Source: Minisyncoccota bacterium (GTDB lineage Bacteria; Patescibacteriota; Minisyncoccia; UBA6257; UBA9933). Taken from it: DNA of 64,000 nt. Under the pieces are notes generated by a model. The model worked only from the letters and a program-made list of their open reading frames with translations, did no database searches and was not told the origin of the DNA. Below are positions 3,112 through 63,157 of this stretch, piece after piece. The translations under genes and the position numbers were made by a program. Location of the stretch: assembly GCA_041650415.1 (NCBI GenBank), contig JBAZLC010000003.1:2033-66032 (forward strand), read 5' to 3'. Within the stretch, counting starts at the first letter, position 1. Every line of letters begins with the position of its first letter.

Positions 3112-3123
3112 ACCGGTGTGGGG

Positions 3124-3151
3124 TTGACAACAACACAATAAATAATATAAT
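3124..3151 (+). promoter_or_regulatory. Sigma70-like promoter upstream of tuf (TTGACA, 16-nt spacer, TATAAT)
   Basis: TTGACA at 3124-3129 and TATAAT at 3146-3151, read by eye, ~115 nt upstream of the tuf ATG. Confidence 0.5.
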
Positions 3152-4866: not shown

Positions 4867-5281
4867 CGCATATTATTTCCTCTTCACCGCGCTCCGGCGT
4901 AAGTGAGTTCAGAAAATTTAATTTTCCCTTAACCCGCTTCGCCCCGTCCAGCGCGGGGCTCGCTAGTCCTCGCGACGGCGAGATTTTATTGGTCGCTTCG
5001 CTTCCGAATTATAATAAAACCACCAAGCTCGCCTGCTGCGGGGTTTCGGAGAAAACAAAATTTTCTTCTCAAAATACAGAATAAACCTTTTTCATAGCCA
5101 GCATTTTGGAGCGAGGTTATAAATTGATGAGCGAAAGGGAAAAAAGCGGGAAAATTGCGTTGTTTGAATCCCGAAGCGTAGCGAAGGTTGAGTTCGCTAT
5201 TTTCCGTCGGTTTTTTACTTTGAGCGAATACAATTTATCCGAGCGGAAAACGCTGGCGGGAAAAGATTTATTTGAATGGGG

Positions 5282-5310
5282 TTGACAAATGCCATTTCTT
5301 TGAGTATAAT
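5282..5310 (+). promoter_or_regulatory. Consensus sigma70 promoter (TTGACA, 17-nt spacer, TATAAT) inside the rpsJ-rplC spacer
   Basis: TTGACA at 5282-5287 and TATAAT at 5305-5310, with a TG two nt upstream of the -10 box; perfect hexamers with optimal spacing. Confidence 0.6.
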
Positions 5311-5316
5311 GTAGCC

Positions 5317-5410
5317 AGTGAGTGTGAATTTTCCTTGTTGCCAAGACGCAAGTCGCGGCAAAATTCAAGGAATATTTATCCAGTCCCCCCGCGAAAGCGG
5401 GGGGTTTTTG
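5317..5410 (+). ncRNA. Short structured transcript (~90 nt) or transcription attenuator: nested hairpins ending in a strong intrinsic terminator
   Basis: Downstream of the consensus promoter there are nested inverted repeats (GAATTTT/AAAATTC, TTCCTTG/CAAGGAA, TTGCC/GGCAA, with a GAC-GCAA-GUC GNRA-capped apex). These are followed by CCCCCCGC-GAAA-GCGGGGGG plus TTTTTG at 5385-5410. No ORF is present. Confidence 0.4.
5385..5410 (+). terminator. Intrinsic terminator/attenuator (CCCCCCGC GAAA GCGGGGGG TTTTT)
   Basis: A perfect 8-bp GC stem with a GAAA tetraloop and a T-run. Confidence 0.65.
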
Positions 5411-5445
5411 TTGTTGCGAAAATTAGGCAAATACAGCATAATTAT

Positions 5446-5590
5446 CTTGCGGCTGCAAGAGAGCACTCACTGCTTTTTATGCCTAAGTGGCCACGAGAGA
5501 GCACTCACTAAACAAAAAAACTGGAGGTCACCATCGTGGCCACTTAGGTAGTAAAAACTGGCGGCGTTCGCCGCCATTGCAGCCGCATAA
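5446..5590 (+). other. Highly structured non-coding segment (long leader of the rplC operon or a second ncRNA) with nested long-range inverted repeats and a 14-nt direct repeat
   Basis: GCGGCTGCAA (5450-5459) pairs with TTGCAGCCGC (5577-5586). CCTAAGTGGCCACG (5482-5495) pairs perfectly with CGTGGCCACTTAGG (5535-5548). There is a GGCGGCG-TT-CGCCGCC hairpin at 5561-5576. The direct repeat AGAGAGCACTCACT occurs at 5458-5471 and 5496-5509. Confidence 0.35.
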
Positions 5591-5732
5591 TGGAGACCTC
5601 GAAAAAGCCAATTGGCATTGACTTATTTTTTGCGATTTGCTATATTTAGCTTCAATATAATGTTGAGTTTTTCAGTTAAAAGTTTATAATCAGTTTTTAG
5701 GATTTAGCCCAAAATAATTAAAATTATTTGAG

Positions 5733-5770: not shown

Positions 5771-6370
5771 ATGGCATTCATTTTAGGAAAAAAATTAAAA
5801 ATGTCCCAAATTTGGAAAGATGAAAAAATCATTCCGGTGACGCTTGTTGAAGCCGGCCCGGTTACGGTTACCCAAATCAGAACAAAAGAAAAAGACGGTT
5901 ATGAAGCCGTTCAGGTTGGTTTCGGAAATAAGAAGGAAAAGAACGTTAAAAAGCCCCAAAGAGGCCAATTTGGGAAGCTTGGAAATTTTCAATACGTAAA
6001 AGAATTCAAAGCTGATGGCGATTTTAACGTCGGAGACGTTTTAAACGTCAGCCAATTCAAAGAAGGCGATAAAATAAAAGTCAGCGGTTTGAATAAAGGC
6101 AGAGGATTTCAAGGCGGAGTAAAAAGACACGGCTTTAGCGGCGGTCCGAAGACTCACGGTCAGAAAAATCGTTTACGCGCTCCGGGTTCCATCGGTTCGA
6201 CGGCTCCTCAAAGGGTTATGCCGGGCAGGAGAATGGCGGGCAGAATGGGCCAGGAAAGAATAACGGTTAAAAATTTGAAAGTCGCCGCGATAGACGAAAA
6301 AAAGAATATTTTAATGGTAAGAGGAGCCGTGCCCGGAATGAGAGGTACGTTGCTTGAAATAAAAATTTAA
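5771..6370 (+). CDS. rplC: 50S ribosomal protein L3
   Basis: MAFILGKKLKMSQIW... matches the canonical uL3 N-terminus; 199 aa. Confidence 0.93.
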   Translation: MAFILGKKLKMSQIWKDEKIIPVTLVEAGPVTVTQIRTKEKDGYEAVQVGFGNKKEKNVKKPQRGQFGKLGNFQYVKEFKADGDFNVGDVLNVSQFKEGDKIKVSGLNKGRGFQGGVKRHGFSGGPKTHGQKNRLRAPGSIGSTAPQRVMPGRRMAGRMGQERITVKNLKVAAIDEKKNILMVRGAVPGMRGTLLEIKI

Positions 6371-48515: not shown

Positions 48516-48565
48516 ACCAAGTTTATTATATCAAAAAATCGTTGTTTTGGAGAGGGAAGCTATAT

Positions 48566-48594
48566 TGACAAAATCAAACAAATCTGTTATAATA
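48566..48594 (+). promoter_or_regulatory. Consensus sigma70 promoter (TTGACA, 17-nt spacer, TATAAT)
   Basis: TTGACA at 48566-48571 and TATAAT at 48589-48594, read by eye. It is divergent from the 48126..48515 gene. Confidence 0.6.
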
Positions 48595-48600
48595 TAGGCG

Positions 48601-48895
48601 GAAGGGATGAGAAAAAATTCTTTCCTGAACTGGCAAAATGCCATTTCAAAAGTTCTTTACAATAAGAAACTGGGTAGCGGAGCGTACTAGACTAAATCGA
48701 GAATTCATATTTTTACATTTTTCCTTTATTTTTCTCATATAAAGAATTCTCGATTCCTCTCCATATCTTCAGTCCTTGCCGGAACCATACAATTTTTCTT
48801 TTCCGGGAATTGGACCAACTGAAGATGGAGAGGATAGCTTTCGCCATCCCATCCCTTATAAAGGAGACTCTCGCGAGCCTCCTTTCTTTTTTTAT
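48601..48895 (+). ncRNA. Candidate ~300-nt structured ncRNA of unknown class (consensus promoter to intrinsic terminator, no convincing ORF)
   Basis: 5' AAGGGATG pairs with 3' CATCCCTT. CGAGAATTC (~48700) pairs with GAATTCTCG (~48746). CTCTCCATATCTTCAGT pairs with ACTGAAGATGGAGAG as a long helix. The terminator is AAAGGAG-ACTCTCGCGAGC-CTCCTTT plus a T-run at 48860-48895. The only ORF is 27 codons (48608-48691). Confidence 0.45.
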
Positions 48896-48936
48896 ATTTA
48901 TTTTGTCGTGGATAATGATGGTTTGGGGATTACTTA

Positions 48937-49827
48937 TTAATTAGTGTTAATAAATATTTTTAATACCCTTGATTCAATTTTTTTAATAAATTTTTCCCAT
49001 CGACCATCTTCTATTTTATCGCTATGTTTTAAAGGACCAATATTTTCTTGAGATAAAATATAATTTTGTTTATTTATATCGCTAAGATTAATAAAATAAA
49101 ATTGATTGTTAAGTTCTTTTGTTTCTTCGTTAAATGGAGATGCTATAAGAAAATTATCATATTTTTCTAAAACAGCCATTTTTATATTTCCATTTGAAAC
49201 TATATAGAGATGAGCATTTTGTGCTATTCTATGCCCCAAATCTTGACAAAAAGTTATCATTAGTAAAATTATAAATAATATCAACGAAAAAAAACCGAAC
49301 GAGCTTTTTCCAAACCATCTTTTAATCTGATTTTCTAAAAAGAATTTGTCTAAAAAAAATGTTATTATTGGTTCCTTTTCGTTTTTTTCTTTAAATTTCG
49401 GGACTAAAGTGAAAAGAATTAAAATATAGAGAAAAAATAAAGATGTAACAATCAAACCTTCAATAAGGATATATAAGTACGATTTCGTAATAAAAGCTCT
49501 CATGAACCAGATTGGTATACTATAAGCAAAAAAGACACTTAAAAATTGAATTTGTACGGAGTCTTTTTTTTGAGCAATGAGCCTATAGACGAGTTTCGCC
49601 ATCATTCCCGCCATAAGTAAAGATAGAAAGATAAAAAAAGAAACAAATACTATTTCAAACGTAGAGATATTTATAAATTTTGATGGTATTCCAAAATAAT
49701 CAAAATAAGCACTTCTATATACAGACGCAAGCCCATATCCGAGAGAAGTTAGTAGTCCTAAAAAAATTGCGTCGCTAAAAAATCTACCTAGATTATTATT
49801 TTGTTTTGTTTTTGATGTATTTTCCAT
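48937..49827 (-). CDS. Hypothetical polytopic membrane protein, very AT-rich (296 aa)
   Basis: Long ORF with multiple TM helices. It is a compositional outlier, noticeably more AT-rich than neighbours. Confidence 0.5.
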   Translation of the reverse strand: MENTSKTKQNNNLGRFFSDAIFLGLLTSLGYGLASVYRSAYFDYFGIPSKFINISTFEIVFVSFFIFLSLLMAGMMAKLVYRLIAQKKDSVQIQFLSVFFAYSIPIWFMRAFITKSYLYILIEGLIVTSLFFLYILILFTLVPKFKEKNEKEPIITFFLDKFFLENQIKRWFGKSSFGFFSLILFIILLMITFCQDLGHRIAQNAHLYIVSNGNIKMAVLEKYDNFLIASPFNEETKELNNQFYFINLSDINKQNYILSQENIGPLKHSDKIEDGRWEKFIKKIESRVLKIFINTN

Positions 49828-50011: not shown

Positions 50012-51316
50012 ATGTTAGCAAGAGAAAGGATTATCGTCGCGTTGGATGTTGGTGACATGGACAAGGCCTTGTTTTTTGTGAGCCTCCTCGCTTCCCGGGG
50101 AGTGTGTTTCAAGGTCGGACTAGAGCTCATAACTTCGGTTGGCGGGCCGGAAATCACCAAAACCATGAGTATGCTCAACGGCAGAGTTTTCTACGACGGG
50201 AAGTTCAATGACATTCCCAACACAATCGCCGGAGCCGCCAAAGCGGTCGCCAAGATGAAGGTGAAGATGTTCAATTTGCACGCTTCATCTGGCATCGAAG
50301 GCATGCGGGCGGCCGTGGCAAACAAAGGCCAGTCGCTTGTCCTGGCAGTGACCGTTCTCACCTCGCTTGAGGAGAACAATGCCCATCTGATTTTCGGCGC
50401 GCCGAGCAAGGCGAAAGTCTTGCAGTTCGCGCGCGACGCGAAACTCGCCGGCTGCGACGGCATCGTTTGCTCGCCGCAGGAACTCGAATTCCTCGCGAAG
50501 AACGACGAGGTCAAAAGCCTGCTTAAGGTCACGCCTGGAATCCGGGCATCCAATGCAGCGCCTGACGACCAGAAAAGGACTCTGACGCCGGAAGAGGCGG
50601 CATACAAGGGCGCGGATTTCCTGGTCATCGGACGACCCATCACGACCGCGAAAGACCCGGTTGAGGCGGTCCTGGAAATCTCGGCGGAAATCGCCAGAGG
50701 GCTGAAAAAGAAACTCCACATGCTTCTGTTCAATTCGCAGAAGATTAAGTTTGGGGCTTTCAAACTCAAACTTCATGAAGAGTTCCCCAATGCGCCGCTG
50801 TCGCCGATTTACATGGACATCAGGAACCTGTCCGAGCCAGCCTACGCGCTTATCGGAGATATCCTGCACGAATTCGTCGTGCGAAACGGCATCGAGTTCG
50901 ACTACGTCATCGGAATCCCGAAGGCGGGCGAACCCATCGGCCGCGCTCTGGCGAACGCAATCGGCAAACCGCTTCTGCGGATGGGAAAGATCGAAGACAA
51001 GGGCAGCCGGAAGATCTCGGCGAATATTCTCGACCAGTTCGAGCCGGGCAAACGCGTCATTTTGGTGGATGATGTTATCACTAAGGCGGACACCAAGAGA
51101 GAAGCCATTAACGCCGTGAAGGCAAACGGTCTCGAGGTGGCGGCCACTGTGGTGCTCTACGACCGGCAACAGGGCGGCCTGCATGACCTACTCAGTGAAG
51201 GCAATCACGCCTACGCCGTTACCACACTGGAAGACACTCTCAGTTTTCTCGTTAGTGAGAAGAAAATCTCCAGCGAGAAGATGGACGACGTCATGGCGTA
51301 CATAACCGCAAAATAG
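50012..51316 (+). CDS. Bifunctional orotidine-5'-phosphate decarboxylase (N-terminal) / orotate phosphoribosyltransferase (C-terminal) fusion
   Basis: N-terminal IIVALDV...KVGLEL...DGKFNDIPNT matches the PyrF type. The C-terminal PRTase motif VILVDDVITKADT with flanking IGIPKAGEPIG matches PyrE. The gene is ~55% GC with a canonical SD. Confidence 0.75.
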   Translation: MLARERIIVALDVGDMDKALFFVSLLASRGVCFKVGLELITSVGGPEITKTMSMLNGRVFYDGKFNDIPNTIAGAAKAVAKMKVKMFNLHASSGIEGMRAAVANKGQSLVLAVTVLTSLEENNAHLIFGAPSKAKVLQFARDAKLAGCDGIVCSPQELEFLAKNDEVKSLLKVTPGIRASNAAPDDQKRTLTPEEAAYKGADFLVIGRPITTAKDPVEAVLEISAEIARGLKKKLHMLLFNSQKIKFGAFKLKLHEEFPNAPLSPIYMDIRNLSEPAYALIGDILHEFVVRNGIEFDYVIGIPKAGEPIGRALANAIGKPLLRMGKIEDKGSRKISANILDQFEPGKRVILVDDVITKADTKREAINAVKANGLEVAATVVLYDRQQGGLHDLLSEGNHAYAVTTLEDTLSFLVSEKKISSEKMDDVMAYITAK

Positions 51317-53436: not shown

Positions 53437-53440
53437 TTTG

Positions 53441-58719: not shown

Positions 58720-59856
58720 ATGCAAATACAAGCAATATTACTTTCTTTGGTTATTTTGTTATCGATAGCGATAAATTCGGGAACGCATAACAACGCTCCT
58801 TCTTTGGCGTCTTCGCAAACAATTCAAACAGAACAAAGCGGGCAAATAGCCGCACAGGCGGCAAAACAAGATGTCGCGAGAACGGAAGAAAAAACAATTG
58901 AAAACAAACAGCCGGAATTAAAAAATCCGTTTATTGTTTTCATCGGCGATGTTTATTTGGCGGTTTCCCAAAGAGCAATTAGTCTGGGGAAAAGCCTTGC
59001 CCTTGCCGCGAGCAGTATTGGCGATAATTCCGCCAAAGACCCTGTTCCGGCGCCAAATTCAACTTCTACTTCCGATTCAACCCTTATTTCAAAGCCCGAT
59101 ATCGCCGAAGTCCAATTAAAATGCGACCCGAGCGGATATGATTTTACCAATAAAGCGATGCTCGCGAAATACATAGACGACGGAATAATTTTTGAATCAA
59201 ACTCCGAAAACCGCTGGCCCATTGCCTCAATAACCAAATTAATGACGGCCGTTGTGGCTCTCGAAAAAACCGATACGGGTAAAGAGATAAAAATTACCGA
59301 GGAAATAGTCAACGTGGAAGGCTTGGCGGGAGGCTTTAAAGTCGGAGAATCTTTTAAAGAGCTTGATTTGATTAAGGCGATGCTTGTGGCTTCAAGCAAT
59401 GACGCGGCGGAAGCGATAGCCGAGAATTTCGAAGGCGGAAAACAGGCATTCGTGGATGAAATGCAAAAGAAAGCCACGGGGCTTAAAATGTTTCAAACGA
59501 CTTATTTGGAACCGACCGGACTTTCTTTTATCAATCAATCTACGGCAAAAGATTTATCAATTTTAATGTCTTATATTTATTCCGAGCATCCGGAGATTCT
59601 CGATATTTCCCGCCAGGAAGAAATCAGAATAATAGACCTTCAATCGGGCAAACTTAAAAAAATATTGAATATCGATAAATTTGCGGGGCAGGAAGATTTT
59701 GTCGGCGGCAAAACCGGATTCATAGACGAGTCGGGCAGGAACTTAATAGGGGTTTTCGATATTTCCGGGAAAATGATTGTTACCGTTGTTTTGGGAGCGA
59801 ATAATTCATTTGACGAAACAAGCGAATTAAAAAGCTTAGTTCAAAATTGTTTGTAA
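58720..59856 (+). CDS. D-alanyl-D-alanine carboxypeptidase (peptidase S11, PBP5-like)
   Basis: SITKLMTA (SxxK) and SSN motifs with an N-terminal signal/TM. Confidence 0.8.
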   Translation: MQIQAILLSLVILLSIAINSGTHNNAPSLASSQTIQTEQSGQIAAQAAKQDVARTEEKTIENKQPELKNPFIVFIGDVYLAVSQRAISLGKSLALAASSIGDNSAKDPVPAPNSTSTSDSTLISKPDIAEVQLKCDPSGYDFTNKAMLAKYIDDGIIFESNSENRWPIASITKLMTAVVALEKTDTGKEIKITEEIVNVEGLAGGFKVGESFKELDLIKAMLVASSNDAAEAIAENFEGGKQAFVDEMQKKATGLKMFQTTYLEPTGLSFINQSTAKDLSILMSYIYSEHPEILDISRQEEIRIIDLQSGKLKKILNIDKFAGQEDFVGGKTGFIDESGRNLIGVFDISGKMIVTVVLGANNSFDETSELKSLVQNCL

Positions 59857-59877: not shown

Positions 59878-60951
59878 ATGTACAGTACCCACATTTTTTT
59901 AATAATTAAAATTATTTGCGCGTTTGTTTTATCTTTCACTTTGGCGCTTGCCCTGTCACCGGCCTTGATAAGGCTTCTTTATAAATATAAATGCTGGAAG
60001 AAAAAGCCTCGCGAGTTCGCTCCGGGCGGAGAAAGAACTCCGATTTTTACCGAGCTTCATGGCACGAAAGAAATTTCAACTCCGCGGATGGGAGGAATTT
60101 TAATTTGGGGAACGGTTTTGATAATCAGCCTGGGAACTTTTATCGTTTCCAAATTCATGCCCGAAGCGCTGGGAATGAAAGTGAATTTTCTTTCGCGTTC
60201 GCAAACCTGGCTGCCGCTTTTCAGTTTGGTGGCGGCTTCGATTCTTGGGCTTGTCGACGACATATTGGTTATAAACAATAAAGGTAAATACATCGGCGGG
60301 GGAATCAGATTTAAAGTGCGAATGGCTTTAATCGGATTGATAGCGGCCGCGGGCGCCTGGTGGTTTTACGTCAAGCTTGGCTGGTCCAGCATCTATATTC
60401 CTTTTTACGGAAATTTGGAAATAGATGGTTTCTATATGTTGCTTTTTATCATTGTCGTTTTGGCGACTTTTTCGGGCGGAGTGGTGGATGGCCTAGACGG
60501 GCTTTCGGCCGGAGTATTAATGCCGATTTTTGCGGCTTTCGGAGTTATCGCTTATTCAAGAGGACTTTATGATATGGCGACTTTCATCGCGATTATTATA
60601 GGTGCTTTGCTGACTTATTTGTGGTTTAACATTCACCCCGCAAGATTTTATATGGGGGAGACGGGCATCATGGGGCTTACCGTTGTTTTGGCGGTCATCG
60701 CTTTTTTGACGAATTCCGTTTTATTCTTGCCAGTTATCGCTTTCGTGTTAGTGCTTGAGTCGGGCTCGGTGATAATTCAATTACTCTCGAAAAAGTTCAG
60801 AGGAAAAAAAGTGTTTTTGTCGGCGCCCATACACCATCATTTTGAAGCTCTTGGCTGGCCGGAAACGCAAGTAACCATGCGTTTTTGGATTATCTCCGGC
60901 GTCTTCAGCGGCCTTGGATTAGTCTTGTTTTTCCTAAGCAAATTCCTCTAA
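59878..60951 (+). CDS. mraY: Phospho-N-acetylmuramoyl-pentapeptide transferase
   Basis: 357 aa, polytopic, with the C-terminal APIHHHFEALGWPETQVTMRFWII signature and a DD motif (GLVDDILV). Confidence 0.88.
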   Translation: MYSTHIFLIIKIICAFVLSFTLALALSPALIRLLYKYKCWKKKPREFAPGGERTPIFTELHGTKEISTPRMGGILIWGTVLIISLGTFIVSKFMPEALGMKVNFLSRSQTWLPLFSLVAASILGLVDDILVINNKGKYIGGGIRFKVRMALIGLIAAAGAWWFYVKLGWSSIYIPFYGNLEIDGFYMLLFIIVVLATFSGGVVDGLDGLSAGVLMPIFAAFGVIAYSRGLYDMATFIAIIIGALLTYLWFNIHPARFYMGETGIMGLTVVLAVIAFLTNSVLFLPVIAFVLVLESGSVIIQLLSKKFRGKKVFLSAPIHHHFEALGWPETQVTMRFWIISGVFSGLGLVLFFLSKFL

Positions 60952-61210
60952 TTGCTTATGTTGATAACTTTAGTTTGCTTGTTCTTGCGATTTTGATATA
61001 ATGATATCAGATCGTTAAAACAACCAGAGGAGATGGAGGGACAATATAGTCCCAACTACCGCATGACAAGTGCGAGCTTCGTTCAAAAGACAAAATTGTC
61101 CCCTGTGATGTCTCAAAATGACGGGAACGTGAACAAAGCTTACGCGCGCATTCGCGGAATGGCTAATCGCCGAATGGTATAGAGCCTTCCATCTTCTCTT
61201 CTCGATACAA

Positions 61211-61240
61211 GCCGTGAACTCGTTTCACGGCTTTTTTCTT
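61211..61240 (+). terminator. Intrinsic terminator (GCCGTGAA-CTCGT-TTCACGGC plus TTTTTT)
   Basis: Read by eye; it ends a short transcript from an upstream promoter around 60977-61005. Confidence 0.55.
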
Positions 61241-61247
61241 TACTTGA

Positions 61248-61303
61248 CCCCACACATAAGAAATTATGTGTGGGGTTGACAAATTTAGATGACGTGCTAT
61301 AAT
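61248..61303 (+). promoter_or_regulatory. Perfect 12-bp inverted repeat (CCCCACACATAA-GAAA-TTATGTGTGGGG) abutting a consensus sigma70 promoter (TTGACA 61276-61281, TATAAT 61298-61303)
   Basis: Operator-like palindrome whose 3' arm ends one nt before the -35 hexamer. Confidence 0.55.
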
Positions 61304-61309
61304 ACGATT

Positions 61310-61668
61310 AAGTTCATTGAGATAGTTTTGAAGGAGAAGGCTGGGTCGGTACTCGTCCTCAGCGGCGGCATAGTCTAGGGTTGACTGCGTTGTTTCATCC
61401 CGCACCTATGCGCAGTGCAGCCGGAGGCAACGCTTGGGGCCAACACAAACGCCGGCGAATGGGCCCCGGTTTGCGAATTGGGTGCATCGCATGAAGCGTT
61501 ACGGATGCGGTCGTCGCCTCCCTGGATCTCTCGCGATTCTGCGGTGGTTGAATTTCCCGCAAATCATCCTCGAGAGCAGGAGCCGAACTGCAAATCCGGG
61601 CCGCGGCACGTCCCAGTCTTCTCCCCCTATATAGCCGGAAACTTTCAGTATAGTTCCCGGCTTTTTTA
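61310..61668 (+). ncRNA. Candidate GC-rich (~56%) structured RNA (~360 nt) or long riboswitch-like leader ending in an intrinsic terminator, upstream of the amidohydrolase gene
   Basis: Driven by the consensus promoter. Many local helices (TGGGGCC/GGCCCCG, CGCAT/ATGCG, CGCCGGCG palindrome). Terminator AGCCGGAAAC-TTTCAGTATA-GTTCCCGGCT plus TTTTTT at 61633-61668. The ORFs on the track have non-protein-like composition. Confidence 0.4.
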
Positions 61669-61699
61669 TTTGTCTTTAAATTTGCTATAATAAACCCTA

Positions 61700-63157
61700 A
61701 TGACTACGCTTATTAAAAACGTTCAACTTATTGACGGCTCCGGTAAACCGGCTTTTAAGGCGGATGTTTTAATCCGCAATGAAAAAATTTCCGCAATAGG
61801 CAATTTCCCAACCTATAAAGCTCACGATACTATAGAGGGTTTTGGCGCGTATCTTGCGCCAGGCTTTATAGATATAAATAACAATGCAGACCACTATTTG
61901 ACGCTTTTCTCAAATCCTTCGCAAAAGGATTATTTATTAGAAGGCGTTACCACGATTATCGGCGGCCAATGCGGAGCATCGCTCGCGCCATTGCTTTATG
62001 GTTCTTTGGAATCGATTAAAGATTGGGCGGATATCGGGAAAATGAATATCGGTTGGCACACGGTTAAAGAATTTTTGAATATTCTAAACGGTTTGAAATT
62101 TGGAGTTAATTTCGGCACGCTCGCCGGCCACCGCACGATTCGCCAGGCGCTAGCCGGAGATTCAAAAAGAGATTTATCGGGAAGCGAATTGAAAATTTTT
62201 AATTTGATTTTAAACCGCGCCTTGAAAGACGGCGCCTTTGGATTTTCAACCGGACTCGGATACATTCATGCCAAACAAACCTCTTACAACGAAATAAAAT
62301 CTCTTGTCGAAGTTGTCGCGAAAAACAAATCGCTTTACGCGACGCATTTACGGAACGAAAAAAGGGGACTGCTCCAATCGGTAAATGAAACAATCAGTAT
62401 TGCCAAAGAAACCGGAGCCAGAGTTTTAATAAGTCATTTCCGCCCGCTTTCAGGCTACGGTACGGATTACGAAGAAGCGATTGATTTGATAAGTAAGAAT
62501 TCCGCCAGAGCCGACGTTTGTTTTGATATTTATCCTTCGGATTTAAGCGCGGTTTTGGTTCACGATATTTTGCCCGAATGGGTTAAAGAAGGAAATACCG
62601 AGACTATTTTAAAAGACATCGAGACTCCCGGATTCAGGAGTAAAATTATGCGCGAGCTTCCACGATTCAGTATTGATGAAACGATTATTTTAAACGCGCC
62701 CTTAAACGCTTATTTGAACGGTAAGTCCTTAAAAGAATTTTCCGAAAACAGGGATTTGAAGCCTGCCGAAGGAATTTTGGAATTAATGAAAATAACCGGT
62801 TTGCGGGCGGTAATTTCATATAAAAACGTCAGTCTGAAAAAGACCATAAACGCCATAAAAAACGACAGAGCGATTGTCGCTTCGAATAATATTCCGAAAA
62901 CTTTCACCGGACTTTTGGAATTGGCGGAAAAAGGGAAATCTTTGCCTATTGAAACCGCGATTTACAAAATTACCGGTTTTCCGGCGCAGCGTCTCGGATT
63001 AAAAAATAGGGGATTGCTAAAAGAAGGATTCGCCGCCGACCTTACGCTTTTCAAGAACGCGCAAATTAGGGAAGTTATCGTGGCAGGCAAAAGAGCTGTA
63101 AAAGACGGAACTTTCCAAAATATTTTGGCGGGTCAAATTTTAAAACATGAAGTTTAA
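61700..63157 (+). CDS. Amidohydrolase family protein (N-acyl-D-amino-acid deacylase/D-aminoacylase-like)
   Basis: 485 aa with IDINNNADH metal-binding N-terminal and Amidohydro_3-like architecture. Confidence 0.7.
   Translation: MTTLIKNVQLIDGSGKPAFKADVLIRNEKISAIGNFPTYKAHDTIEGFGAYLAPGFIDINNNADHYLTLFSNPSQKDYLLEGVTTIIGGQCGASLAPLLYGSLESIKDWADIGKMNIGWHTVKEFLNILNGLKFGVNFGTLAGHRTIRQALAGDSKRDLSGSELKIFNLILNRALKDGAFGFSTGLGYIHAKQTSYNEIKSLVEVVAKNKSLYATHLRNEKRGLLQSVNETISIAKETGARVLISHFRPLSGYGTDYEEAIDLISKNSARADVCFDIYPSDLSAVLVHDILPEWVKEGNTETILKDIETPGFRSKIMRELPRFSIDETIILNAPLNAYLNGKSLKEFSENRDLKPAEGILELMKITGLRAVISYKNVSLKKTINAIKNDRAIVASNNIPKTFTGLLELAEKGKSLPIETAIYKITGFPAQRLGLKNRGLLKEGFAADLTLFKNAQIREVIVAGKRAVKDGTFQNILAGQILKHEV

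Follow-up and report, generated by a model that had tools for sequence, protein, structure and literature searches.

A strongly promoted, terminator-bounded GC-rich unit between mraY and an amidohydrolase gene in a patescibacterial genome: a candidate strain-specific non-coding RNA

The gap between mraY and the amidohydrolase gene

The window, by which the whole 64-kb stretch of DNA analysed here is meant, contains a cell-wall/division cluster in which an amidohydrolase gene of the Amidohydro_1/3 type (D-aminoacylase-like) lies between mraY and ftsW-murG, the slot usually taken by murD. This gene order is kept across many Paceibacteria-like genomes, and orthologues of the amidohydrolase are found in L001, L003, L009, L083 and other related loci. 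The gap between mraY and the amidohydrolase gene holds two tandem units, A upstream and B downstream (Table 1). The genome is Paceibacteria- or Wolfebacteria-like, and an NCBI Candidatus Paceibacterota MAG has the identical amidohydrolase protein on record. A contig of an ENA assembly (L081) shares 7.3 kb with the window, the whole of B among them, at 100% identity, the two assemblies being possibly not independent; one assembly with the contig is ERZ27247363. Neither tandem repeats nor CRISPR or TIGR-like arrays were found in the window.

Shine-Dalgarno sequences are essentially absent from this genome, as judged from all the gene starts examined in the window (e.g. 906-61700), and A/T-rich leaders precede the starts. 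A clear AAGGAGG ribosome-binding site was seen just once in the window, at a PyrF-PyrE fusion gene (OMP decarboxylase plus phosphoribosyltransferase; 50012-51316, plus strand) with 55% GC and a GC3 of 0.71. It adjoins an ORF of 26% GC on the minus strand (48937-49827) that has no Pfam match, and this region is probably horizontally acquired. To our knowledge, the non-coding RNAs of Patescibacteria (CPR) are almost uncharted. Literature searches on non-coding or structured RNAs in these bacteria gave nothing relevant except group I introns in tRNA genes, and such introns are reported to hide tRNA genes in Patescibacteria (PMC13011429).

Table 1. Features of the mraY-amidohydrolase region in window coordinates, orthologues of unit A in coordinates of their own loci, and the upstream flank of the amidohydrolase gene in relatives
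Feature	Position	Strand	Details
PBP5-like peptidase gene	58720-59856		
mraY	59878-60951		
Non-coding gap from mraY to the amidohydrolase gene			749 nt
Unit A	60975-61239	+	directly downstream of mraY; RNA 61026-61200
A promoter	ending at 61002		TTGCTT, 16-nt spacer, TGaTATAAT (extended -10)
A closing helix	61026-61040 / 61185-61199		
A terminator	61209-61239		
A orthologues	L089 105-308; L086 1-160; L001 5097-5385; L087 1-170; L088 5860-5580 (-)		
Perfect 13-bp palindrome, GAAA loop	61247-61276	+	ACCCCACACATAA / TTATGTGTGGGGT; arms 61247-61259 / 61264-61276, 13/13 complementary
B sigma-70 promoter	61276-61303	+	TTGACA 61276-61281, 16-nt spacer, TATAAT 61298-61303; extended -10 TGcTATAAT
AT-rich initial transcribed region and leader	61304-61332	+	27.6% GC
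B closing helix, 5′ strand	61333-61348	+	GGAGAAGGCTGGGTCG
GC-rich core of B	61349-61608	+	60.8% GC, 260 nt
B closing helix, 3′ strand	61609-61624	+	CGTCCCAGTCTTCTCC
91-aa ORF	61415-61690		continues through the terminator
66-aa ORF	61434-61634		GGAGG 6 nt 5′ of the TTG start at 61434
B intrinsic terminator	61633-61671	+	bulged stem-loop 61633-61662 (-13.5 kcal/mol), then TTTTTTATTT
Amidohydrolase extended -10 promoter and ATG	61683-61702	+	TGCTATAAT at 61683-61691, 8 nt before ATG 61700
Amidohydrolase gene	61700-63157		followed by ftsW and murG
Flank in L082			89% amidohydrolase identity; different terminator and AT-rich ORF end upstream; contig ends 142 nt before the gene
Flank in L083			87% amidohydrolase identity; nothing upstream, gap 63 nt
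Flank in L086 / L089			78% amidohydrolase identity; only a short A-type RNA upstream
Flank in L001 / L087 / L088			76-77% amidohydrolase identity; A-type RNA and a small Cys-rich (zinc-ribbon-like) ORF upstream
Flank in L084			76% amidohydrolase identity; AT-rich sequence upstream

Signals, folding and coding capacity of unit B

Unit B is preceded by an inverted repeat with a GAAA loop that had been described in a preliminary description as a perfect 12-bp palindrome abutting a perfect TTGACA/TATAAT promoter; the repeat is perfect over 13 pairs, and the promoter agrees with the consensus at all 12 positions and carries the additional TG. As RNA, the palindrome would form a hairpin of -21.2 kcal/mol. 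Perfect hairpins of at least 11 bp occur only three times in the 64 kb, this one included (shuffled sequences gave a mean of 0.06), and the other two are bidirectional terminators. No second copy of the palindrome was found in the window or in IMG/VR. The palindrome overlaps the -35 box by a single base, which ends the one and begins the other, and its right arm, GTGTGGGG, doubles as part of a GGGG-TTGACA motif of other strong promoters, GGGGTTGAC recurring at 3120 and 5278 in the window and also in L015 and L042. This overlap weakens the case for a dedicated operator, and the palindrome might act either as a hairpin or roadblock against read-through from A or as a repressor site.

The promoter itself is the sole 12/12 match between 60000 and 62500 and one of five in the window. 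It is homologous to the promoter of the A-type RNA in L001, with which it agrees at 24 of 28 positions, 13 of the 16 spacer positions among them. Of the five perfect promoters in the window, three (3120, 5278 and 61272) have GGGG immediately 5′ of the -35 TTGACA, as do promoters in L015 (8989, minus strand) and L042 (3388, minus strand). The promoter at 3124 and that of B have GTGTGGGGTTGACAA in common. The GGGG may be a lineage-specific upstream promoter element.

Transcription of B is predicted to start near A61310, by the standard distance from the -10 box. The predicted transcript (61310-61668) has 56.5% GC and its segment 61333-61624 has 61.3%, as against 40.6% for the window, in keeping with the GC-rich element described earlier, and the jump from 27.6% in the leader to 61% falls exactly at the block enclosed by the closing helix. 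The two 16-nt strands of this helix form 14 Watson-Crick pairs and one G-U pair on the plus strand; the latter exists on that strand only, and the plus strand is thereby favoured. The 5′ strand contains AGGAGAAGG, which resembles AGGAGATGG of A and matches the P1 helix of A at eight of nine positions. An intrinsic terminator had been noted about 30 nt before the amidohydrolase start, and this is where it lies: its stem-loop is followed by T6 (61662-67) and ATTT, and it ends about 30 nt 5′ of ATG 61700. A consensus terminator scanner missed it because of the bulged stem.

The interior shows no folding excess. The minimum free energy of the plus strand lies at z = -1.8 to -1.9 relative to dinucleotide shuffles, and the two halves of B fold at z = +1.1 and +0.3, that is, no better than shuffles. 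The long-range closing helix is the sole feature of the fold above chance, and the earlier impression of a region full of local helices does not hold. For neighbouring non-coding units of this genome, the z-scores are -6 to -9. An RNA from the minus strand was considered and rejected. It folds at z = -4.0 to -4.7, but composition and the terminator hairpin explain most of this excess, and the value falls to -2.6 for the core only; no promoter or terminator lies on that strand, and the G-U pair of the stalk would become C-A.

Three other units in the window also draw attention by their folding. First, at 48565-48900 on the plus strand, a perfect TTGACA-17-TATAAT promoter between two minus-strand genes precedes an AT-rich unit of about 290 nt, closed by GGAAGGGAUG/CAUCCCUU and ended by a terminator at 48862-48895 (z = -6.4, no Rfam match). 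Second, in the plus-strand region 5278-5592, a hairpin RNA of about 85 nt (5316-5405) with the terminator CCCCCCGCGAAAGCGGGGGG-U5 is driven from a perfect GGGG-TTGACA promoter at 5282 (z = -6.6, no Rfam match). Third, a 145-nt three-way junction at 5448-5592, closed by GCGGCUGCAA/UUGCAGCCGC and with repeated GAGAGCACUCACU, folds at z = -8.8 and has no Rfam match. The hairpin RNA and the junction lie upstream of a putative ribosomal-protein operon starting at 5771. A, 5316-5405, 5448-5592 and 48600-48900, with z-scores of -6.4 to -8.8 and no counterpart in Rfam, are far more promising than B as new structured-RNA families.

Two ORFs lie within B, and the shorter one has GGAGG 6 nt before its TTG start, which might suggest that B encodes a small protein of 91 or 66 aa. 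This reading is hardly tenable. Homologues of the 91-aa ORF were found neither by word-indexed search nor by exhaustive phmmer against 1.84 billion representatives, a concatenated six-frame query of B gave no match to proteins, and no Pfam match was obtained; the protein-level conservation that, according to the preliminary description, would have marked ORF 61415-61690 as a real gene was thus not found by any homology search. GC content is flat across codon positions (GC1/2/3 of 0.58/0.51/0.58 and 0.56/0.62/0.62), whereas real genes here have a GC2 of about 0.37. Since Shine-Dalgarno sequences are not used in this genome, the GGAG-like stretches of B are not ribosome-binding sites. Moreover, the longer ORF reads through the terminator, and the ENA record calls no gene within B. 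The protein databases do not contain even a self-match of B; as no ORF has been called in it, the unit itself is absent from them, and the protein searches therefore argue against coding only, not against non-coding relatives. As the core matches no protein in any frame, it is no obvious gene fragment either. By these tests of its sequence, B is non-coding.

Known RNA families offer no match. A cmscan of the whole window against Rfam 15 at the gathering threshold returned tRNA-Gln only, and at E<=10 there was no credible match on 861 nt and none at all on the 381-nt interval of B, in agreement with the earlier failure to match the element to known families by eye. ARAGORN placed no tRNA or tmRNA in this interval, its only tRNA being the tRNA-Gln at 53440, and the group I intron model RF00028 had no match there at E<=10. 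Three specific candidates were inspected and rejected: RNase P RNA, for which the P4 strands are absent by eye; an intron-bearing tRNA, for which inspection showed no T-loop, no 7-bp acceptor stem with discriminator and no CCA end; and 6S RNA, whose rod shape is missing. That B belongs to one of the known classes (RNase P RNA, tmRNA, 6S, SRP, group I intron or intron-containing tRNA) and has merely diverged strongly is very improbable. Its size, GC enrichment, strong promoter and closing stalk do resemble those of housekeeping RNA genes, and tRNA genes hidden by group I introns are, as noted above, known from Patescibacteria. However, the Rfam and ARAGORN results and the lack of the diagnostic parts speak against this idea, and a housekeeping RNA would not be missing at this locus in sister lineages.

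Unit A, relatives of the locus and the amidohydrolase promoter

Unit A is a far better defined RNA. It folds at z = -6.8 (6-7 standard deviations beyond shuffles) into a four-way junction and is conserved at the same locus in two sister lineages (L089/L086 and L001/L087/L088), with a variable insertion in one arm. A G-C pair of its P1 closing helix in the window is replaced by A-U in L089, a compensatory change read directly from the sequences, and its orthologues share the hairpin GGAC-AAUAUA-GUCC and the motifs RCGCGCAU and GGYAUAGAGCC. No Rfam match to A was obtained, the L089 orthologue giving noise only.

B lies at the same locus and on the same strand as A and repeats its order of parts: promoter, AT-rich leader, purine-rich stalk strand, interior, pyrimidine-rich strand, linker and terminator. 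The two have in common the stalk motif AGGAGAWGG (AGGAGAUGG; eight of nine positions), a pyrimidine-rich CUUCUC 3′ strand and an AUAYA linker. The 3′ half of the B terminator repeats that of A at 16 of 18 positions (z = 5.5 against shuffles, p about 0.001). Outside the terminator and the promoter spacer, the likeness of the boundary modules, stalk and leader included, is not significant; local alignment of the 5′ module of B with A gave p of about 0.19. The cores align no better than shuffles, and nhmmer found no cross-match between them. Unlike A, B has neither the GGAC-AAUAUA-GUCC hairpin nor RCGCGCAU nor GGYAUAGAGCC, its core is 260 nt long with 61% GC as compared with about 60-140 nt and about 48% GC, and it is missing from the sister lineages that keep A. 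Base pairing between the two RNAs, through the conserved GCGCAUUCGC of A and GCGAAUGGGC of B, was considered and rejected, its RNAduplex energy being matched by 10% of shuffles.

B has so far been found in one strain only. The orthologous loci at 87% and at 76-78% amidohydrolase identity lack it, it occurs once in the 64-kb window, and none of the 87 related loci of other genomes contains it. When 80 mraY loci of related genomes were searched by nhmmer with A and B, the self contig alone was returned, and B as a query of tblastx and blastn (word size 7) gave nothing below E 0.5 in the rest of the window or in any locus outside its own contig. A blastn search in distant mode against phage and plasmid collections had no match, nor had IMG/VR scans with two 18-20-mers of B and the palindrome. 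A scan of JGI metagenomes with the promoter pattern of B and L001 found only an organism of the L001 type, which carries A and not B. The lack of conservation that had been named in advance as a refutation of the idea is therefore what was observed among the orthologous loci and the databases searched. In these, no homologue turned up that could show covariation or selection on B.

The flanks of mraY and its gap to the amidohydrolase gene are an insertion hot spot in this clade. The gap contains a small ORF, GIY-YIG-like by eye, in L008 (1840-2100), a small Cys-rich ORF, zinc-ribbon-like by eye, in L001 (5495-5676), open reading frames of 66% GC in L025 (5500-6480) and tRNA genes of unusual build in L015 (5090-5310), and the mraY flank of L083 carries a PD-(D/E)XK gene (Pfam PDDEXK_3; 1337-1723). 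B might be nothing but a recent, functionless foreign GC-rich insertion in this intergenic hot spot, possibly inside a duplicated A-type cassette, that is transcribed between native signals. Such an origin is possible, though it is not the reading we prefer. It would account for the strain specificity of B (missing from the loci at 87% and 76-78% identity, with no trace in the short flank available at 89%), for a core folding no better than shuffles, for a GC content 20 points above that of the genome, and for the unrelated inserts that the same gap holds in L008, L001, L025 and L015. However, a random insertion would not call for so much order, with a 12/12 promoter and its extended -10, a stalk set exactly around the GC block and a clean terminator, and a core without protein match in any frame is no obvious gene fragment. 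Since B shows no folding excess and has no relatives, this alternative remains a serious competitor to a non-coding RNA gene.

A MITE-like miniature mobile element with terminal inverted repeats is improbable. The GC block is bounded by inverted repeats of 16 nt, TTGAC occurs on both sides of the palindrome, and relatives differ in presence or absence of the unit, all of which would suit such an element. Nevertheless, B is a single copy in the window and is not seen in the 87 other loci, no target-site duplication surrounds the inverted repeats, these have a G-U-type mismatch as expected of an RNA helix, and the equivalent helix in A shows compensatory change.

The position of the terminator had also suggested a large riboswitch or attenuator controlling the amidohydrolase, an idea that the analysis does not support. 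An extended -10 motif (TGNTATAAT) stands 6-13 nt 5′ of the start codon in L001, L082, L083 and L089 as well, and the promoter is thus kept also in relatives without B, for instance L083, where 63 nt without any element separate mraY from the gene. As this conserved promoter is the gene's own and is present also where the element is not, the amidohydrolase mRNA would be leaderless or nearly so; with a separate promoter for the gene, B would not gate it, and the terminator of B would mainly insulate the amidohydrolase promoter. It is unlikely that B is a cis-acting leader controlling read-through into amidohydrolase-ftsW-murG. The same orientation and a terminator 30 nt 5′ of the ATG are what such a leader would have, and a read-through mRNA could be translated, since translation here does not need a Shine-Dalgarno sequence. 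However, an independent conserved promoter lies between terminator and ATG, the association does not hold in close relatives, no Rfam aptamer matches even at E<=10, and there is little structure, with no convincing antiterminator pairing in the minimum free energy folds inspected by eye. B is therefore probably not a riboswitch for the adjoining amidohydrolase.

Reading of unit B and comparison with known systems

The signals and boundaries of B, its non-coding status, its absence from the relatives examined and the independent promoter downstream of it are all established at the level of sequence. The reading that we favour, with a probability of roughly one half, is that B is an autonomous, strongly promoted and terminator-bounded unit for a strain- or species-specific non-coding RNA of about 360 nt, probably an A-type cassette, or the signals of one, enclosing GC-rich sequence from outside. 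RNA polymerase would start at about 61310 from a consensus sigma-70 promoter with extended -10, of the class found at other strongly expressed units of this genome. The transcript would pair 61333-61348 with 61609-61624 and thereby enclose the 260-nt core of 61% GC in a stalk like those of stable-RNA genes, transcription would stop at the intrinsic terminator 61633-61667, and the amidohydrolase, with an extended -10 promoter of its own, would be made from a separate, leaderless mRNA. As to origin, the interior of an A-type cassette would have been replaced by GC-rich, probably foreign, sequence. The independent, possibly acquired non-coding RNA proposed in the preliminary description is consistent with the results, though unproven. 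B would be transcribed and stable and would act in trans, perhaps by binding a protein or as a decoy; possibly, it has no function at all.

Should B turn out to function as an RNA, it would represent a gene that a minimal genome has gained recently, by birth or by acquisition, and would show how a conserved RNA cassette can serve again around a different interior. A more speculative and rather doubtful extension is that B forms part, with A and the unit at 48565-48900, of a Paceibacteria-specific class of cassette RNAs not described before, in which the expression scaffold is conserved and the interiors are hypervariable. The scaffold would then consist of a strong GGGG-TTGACA promoter, a closing stalk with purine-rich 5′ and pyrimidine-rich 3′ strands, and a terminator, and B would be a captured foreign GC-rich sequence under high expression, serving perhaps as a decoy, in defence, or as an RNA aimed at the host of the episymbiont. 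The practical value of the analysis is mostly corrective, in that the amidohydrolase is probably not riboswitch-controlled.

Among known systems, terminating riboswitch leaders resemble B in being long untranslated RNAs with an intrinsic terminator just 5′ of a gene on the same strand. They differ from it in that at the B locus a promoter intervenes, no aptamer family is recognized, the association with the gene is not conserved and no antiterminator is identified. 6S RNA is about 100 nt shorter than B, for which no rod with a central bubble is predicted and no Rfam 6S match was obtained at E<=10; the two have in common a promoter of the abundant-RNA type and ends paired in a closing stem. Stand-alone bacterial sRNA and stable-RNA genes differ from B in that it lacks conservation and a known partner or target and has a much weaker predicted structure, but they share with it a consensus promoter, a terminal stalk, a Rho-independent terminator, the lack of an ORF and a GC content above the genome average.
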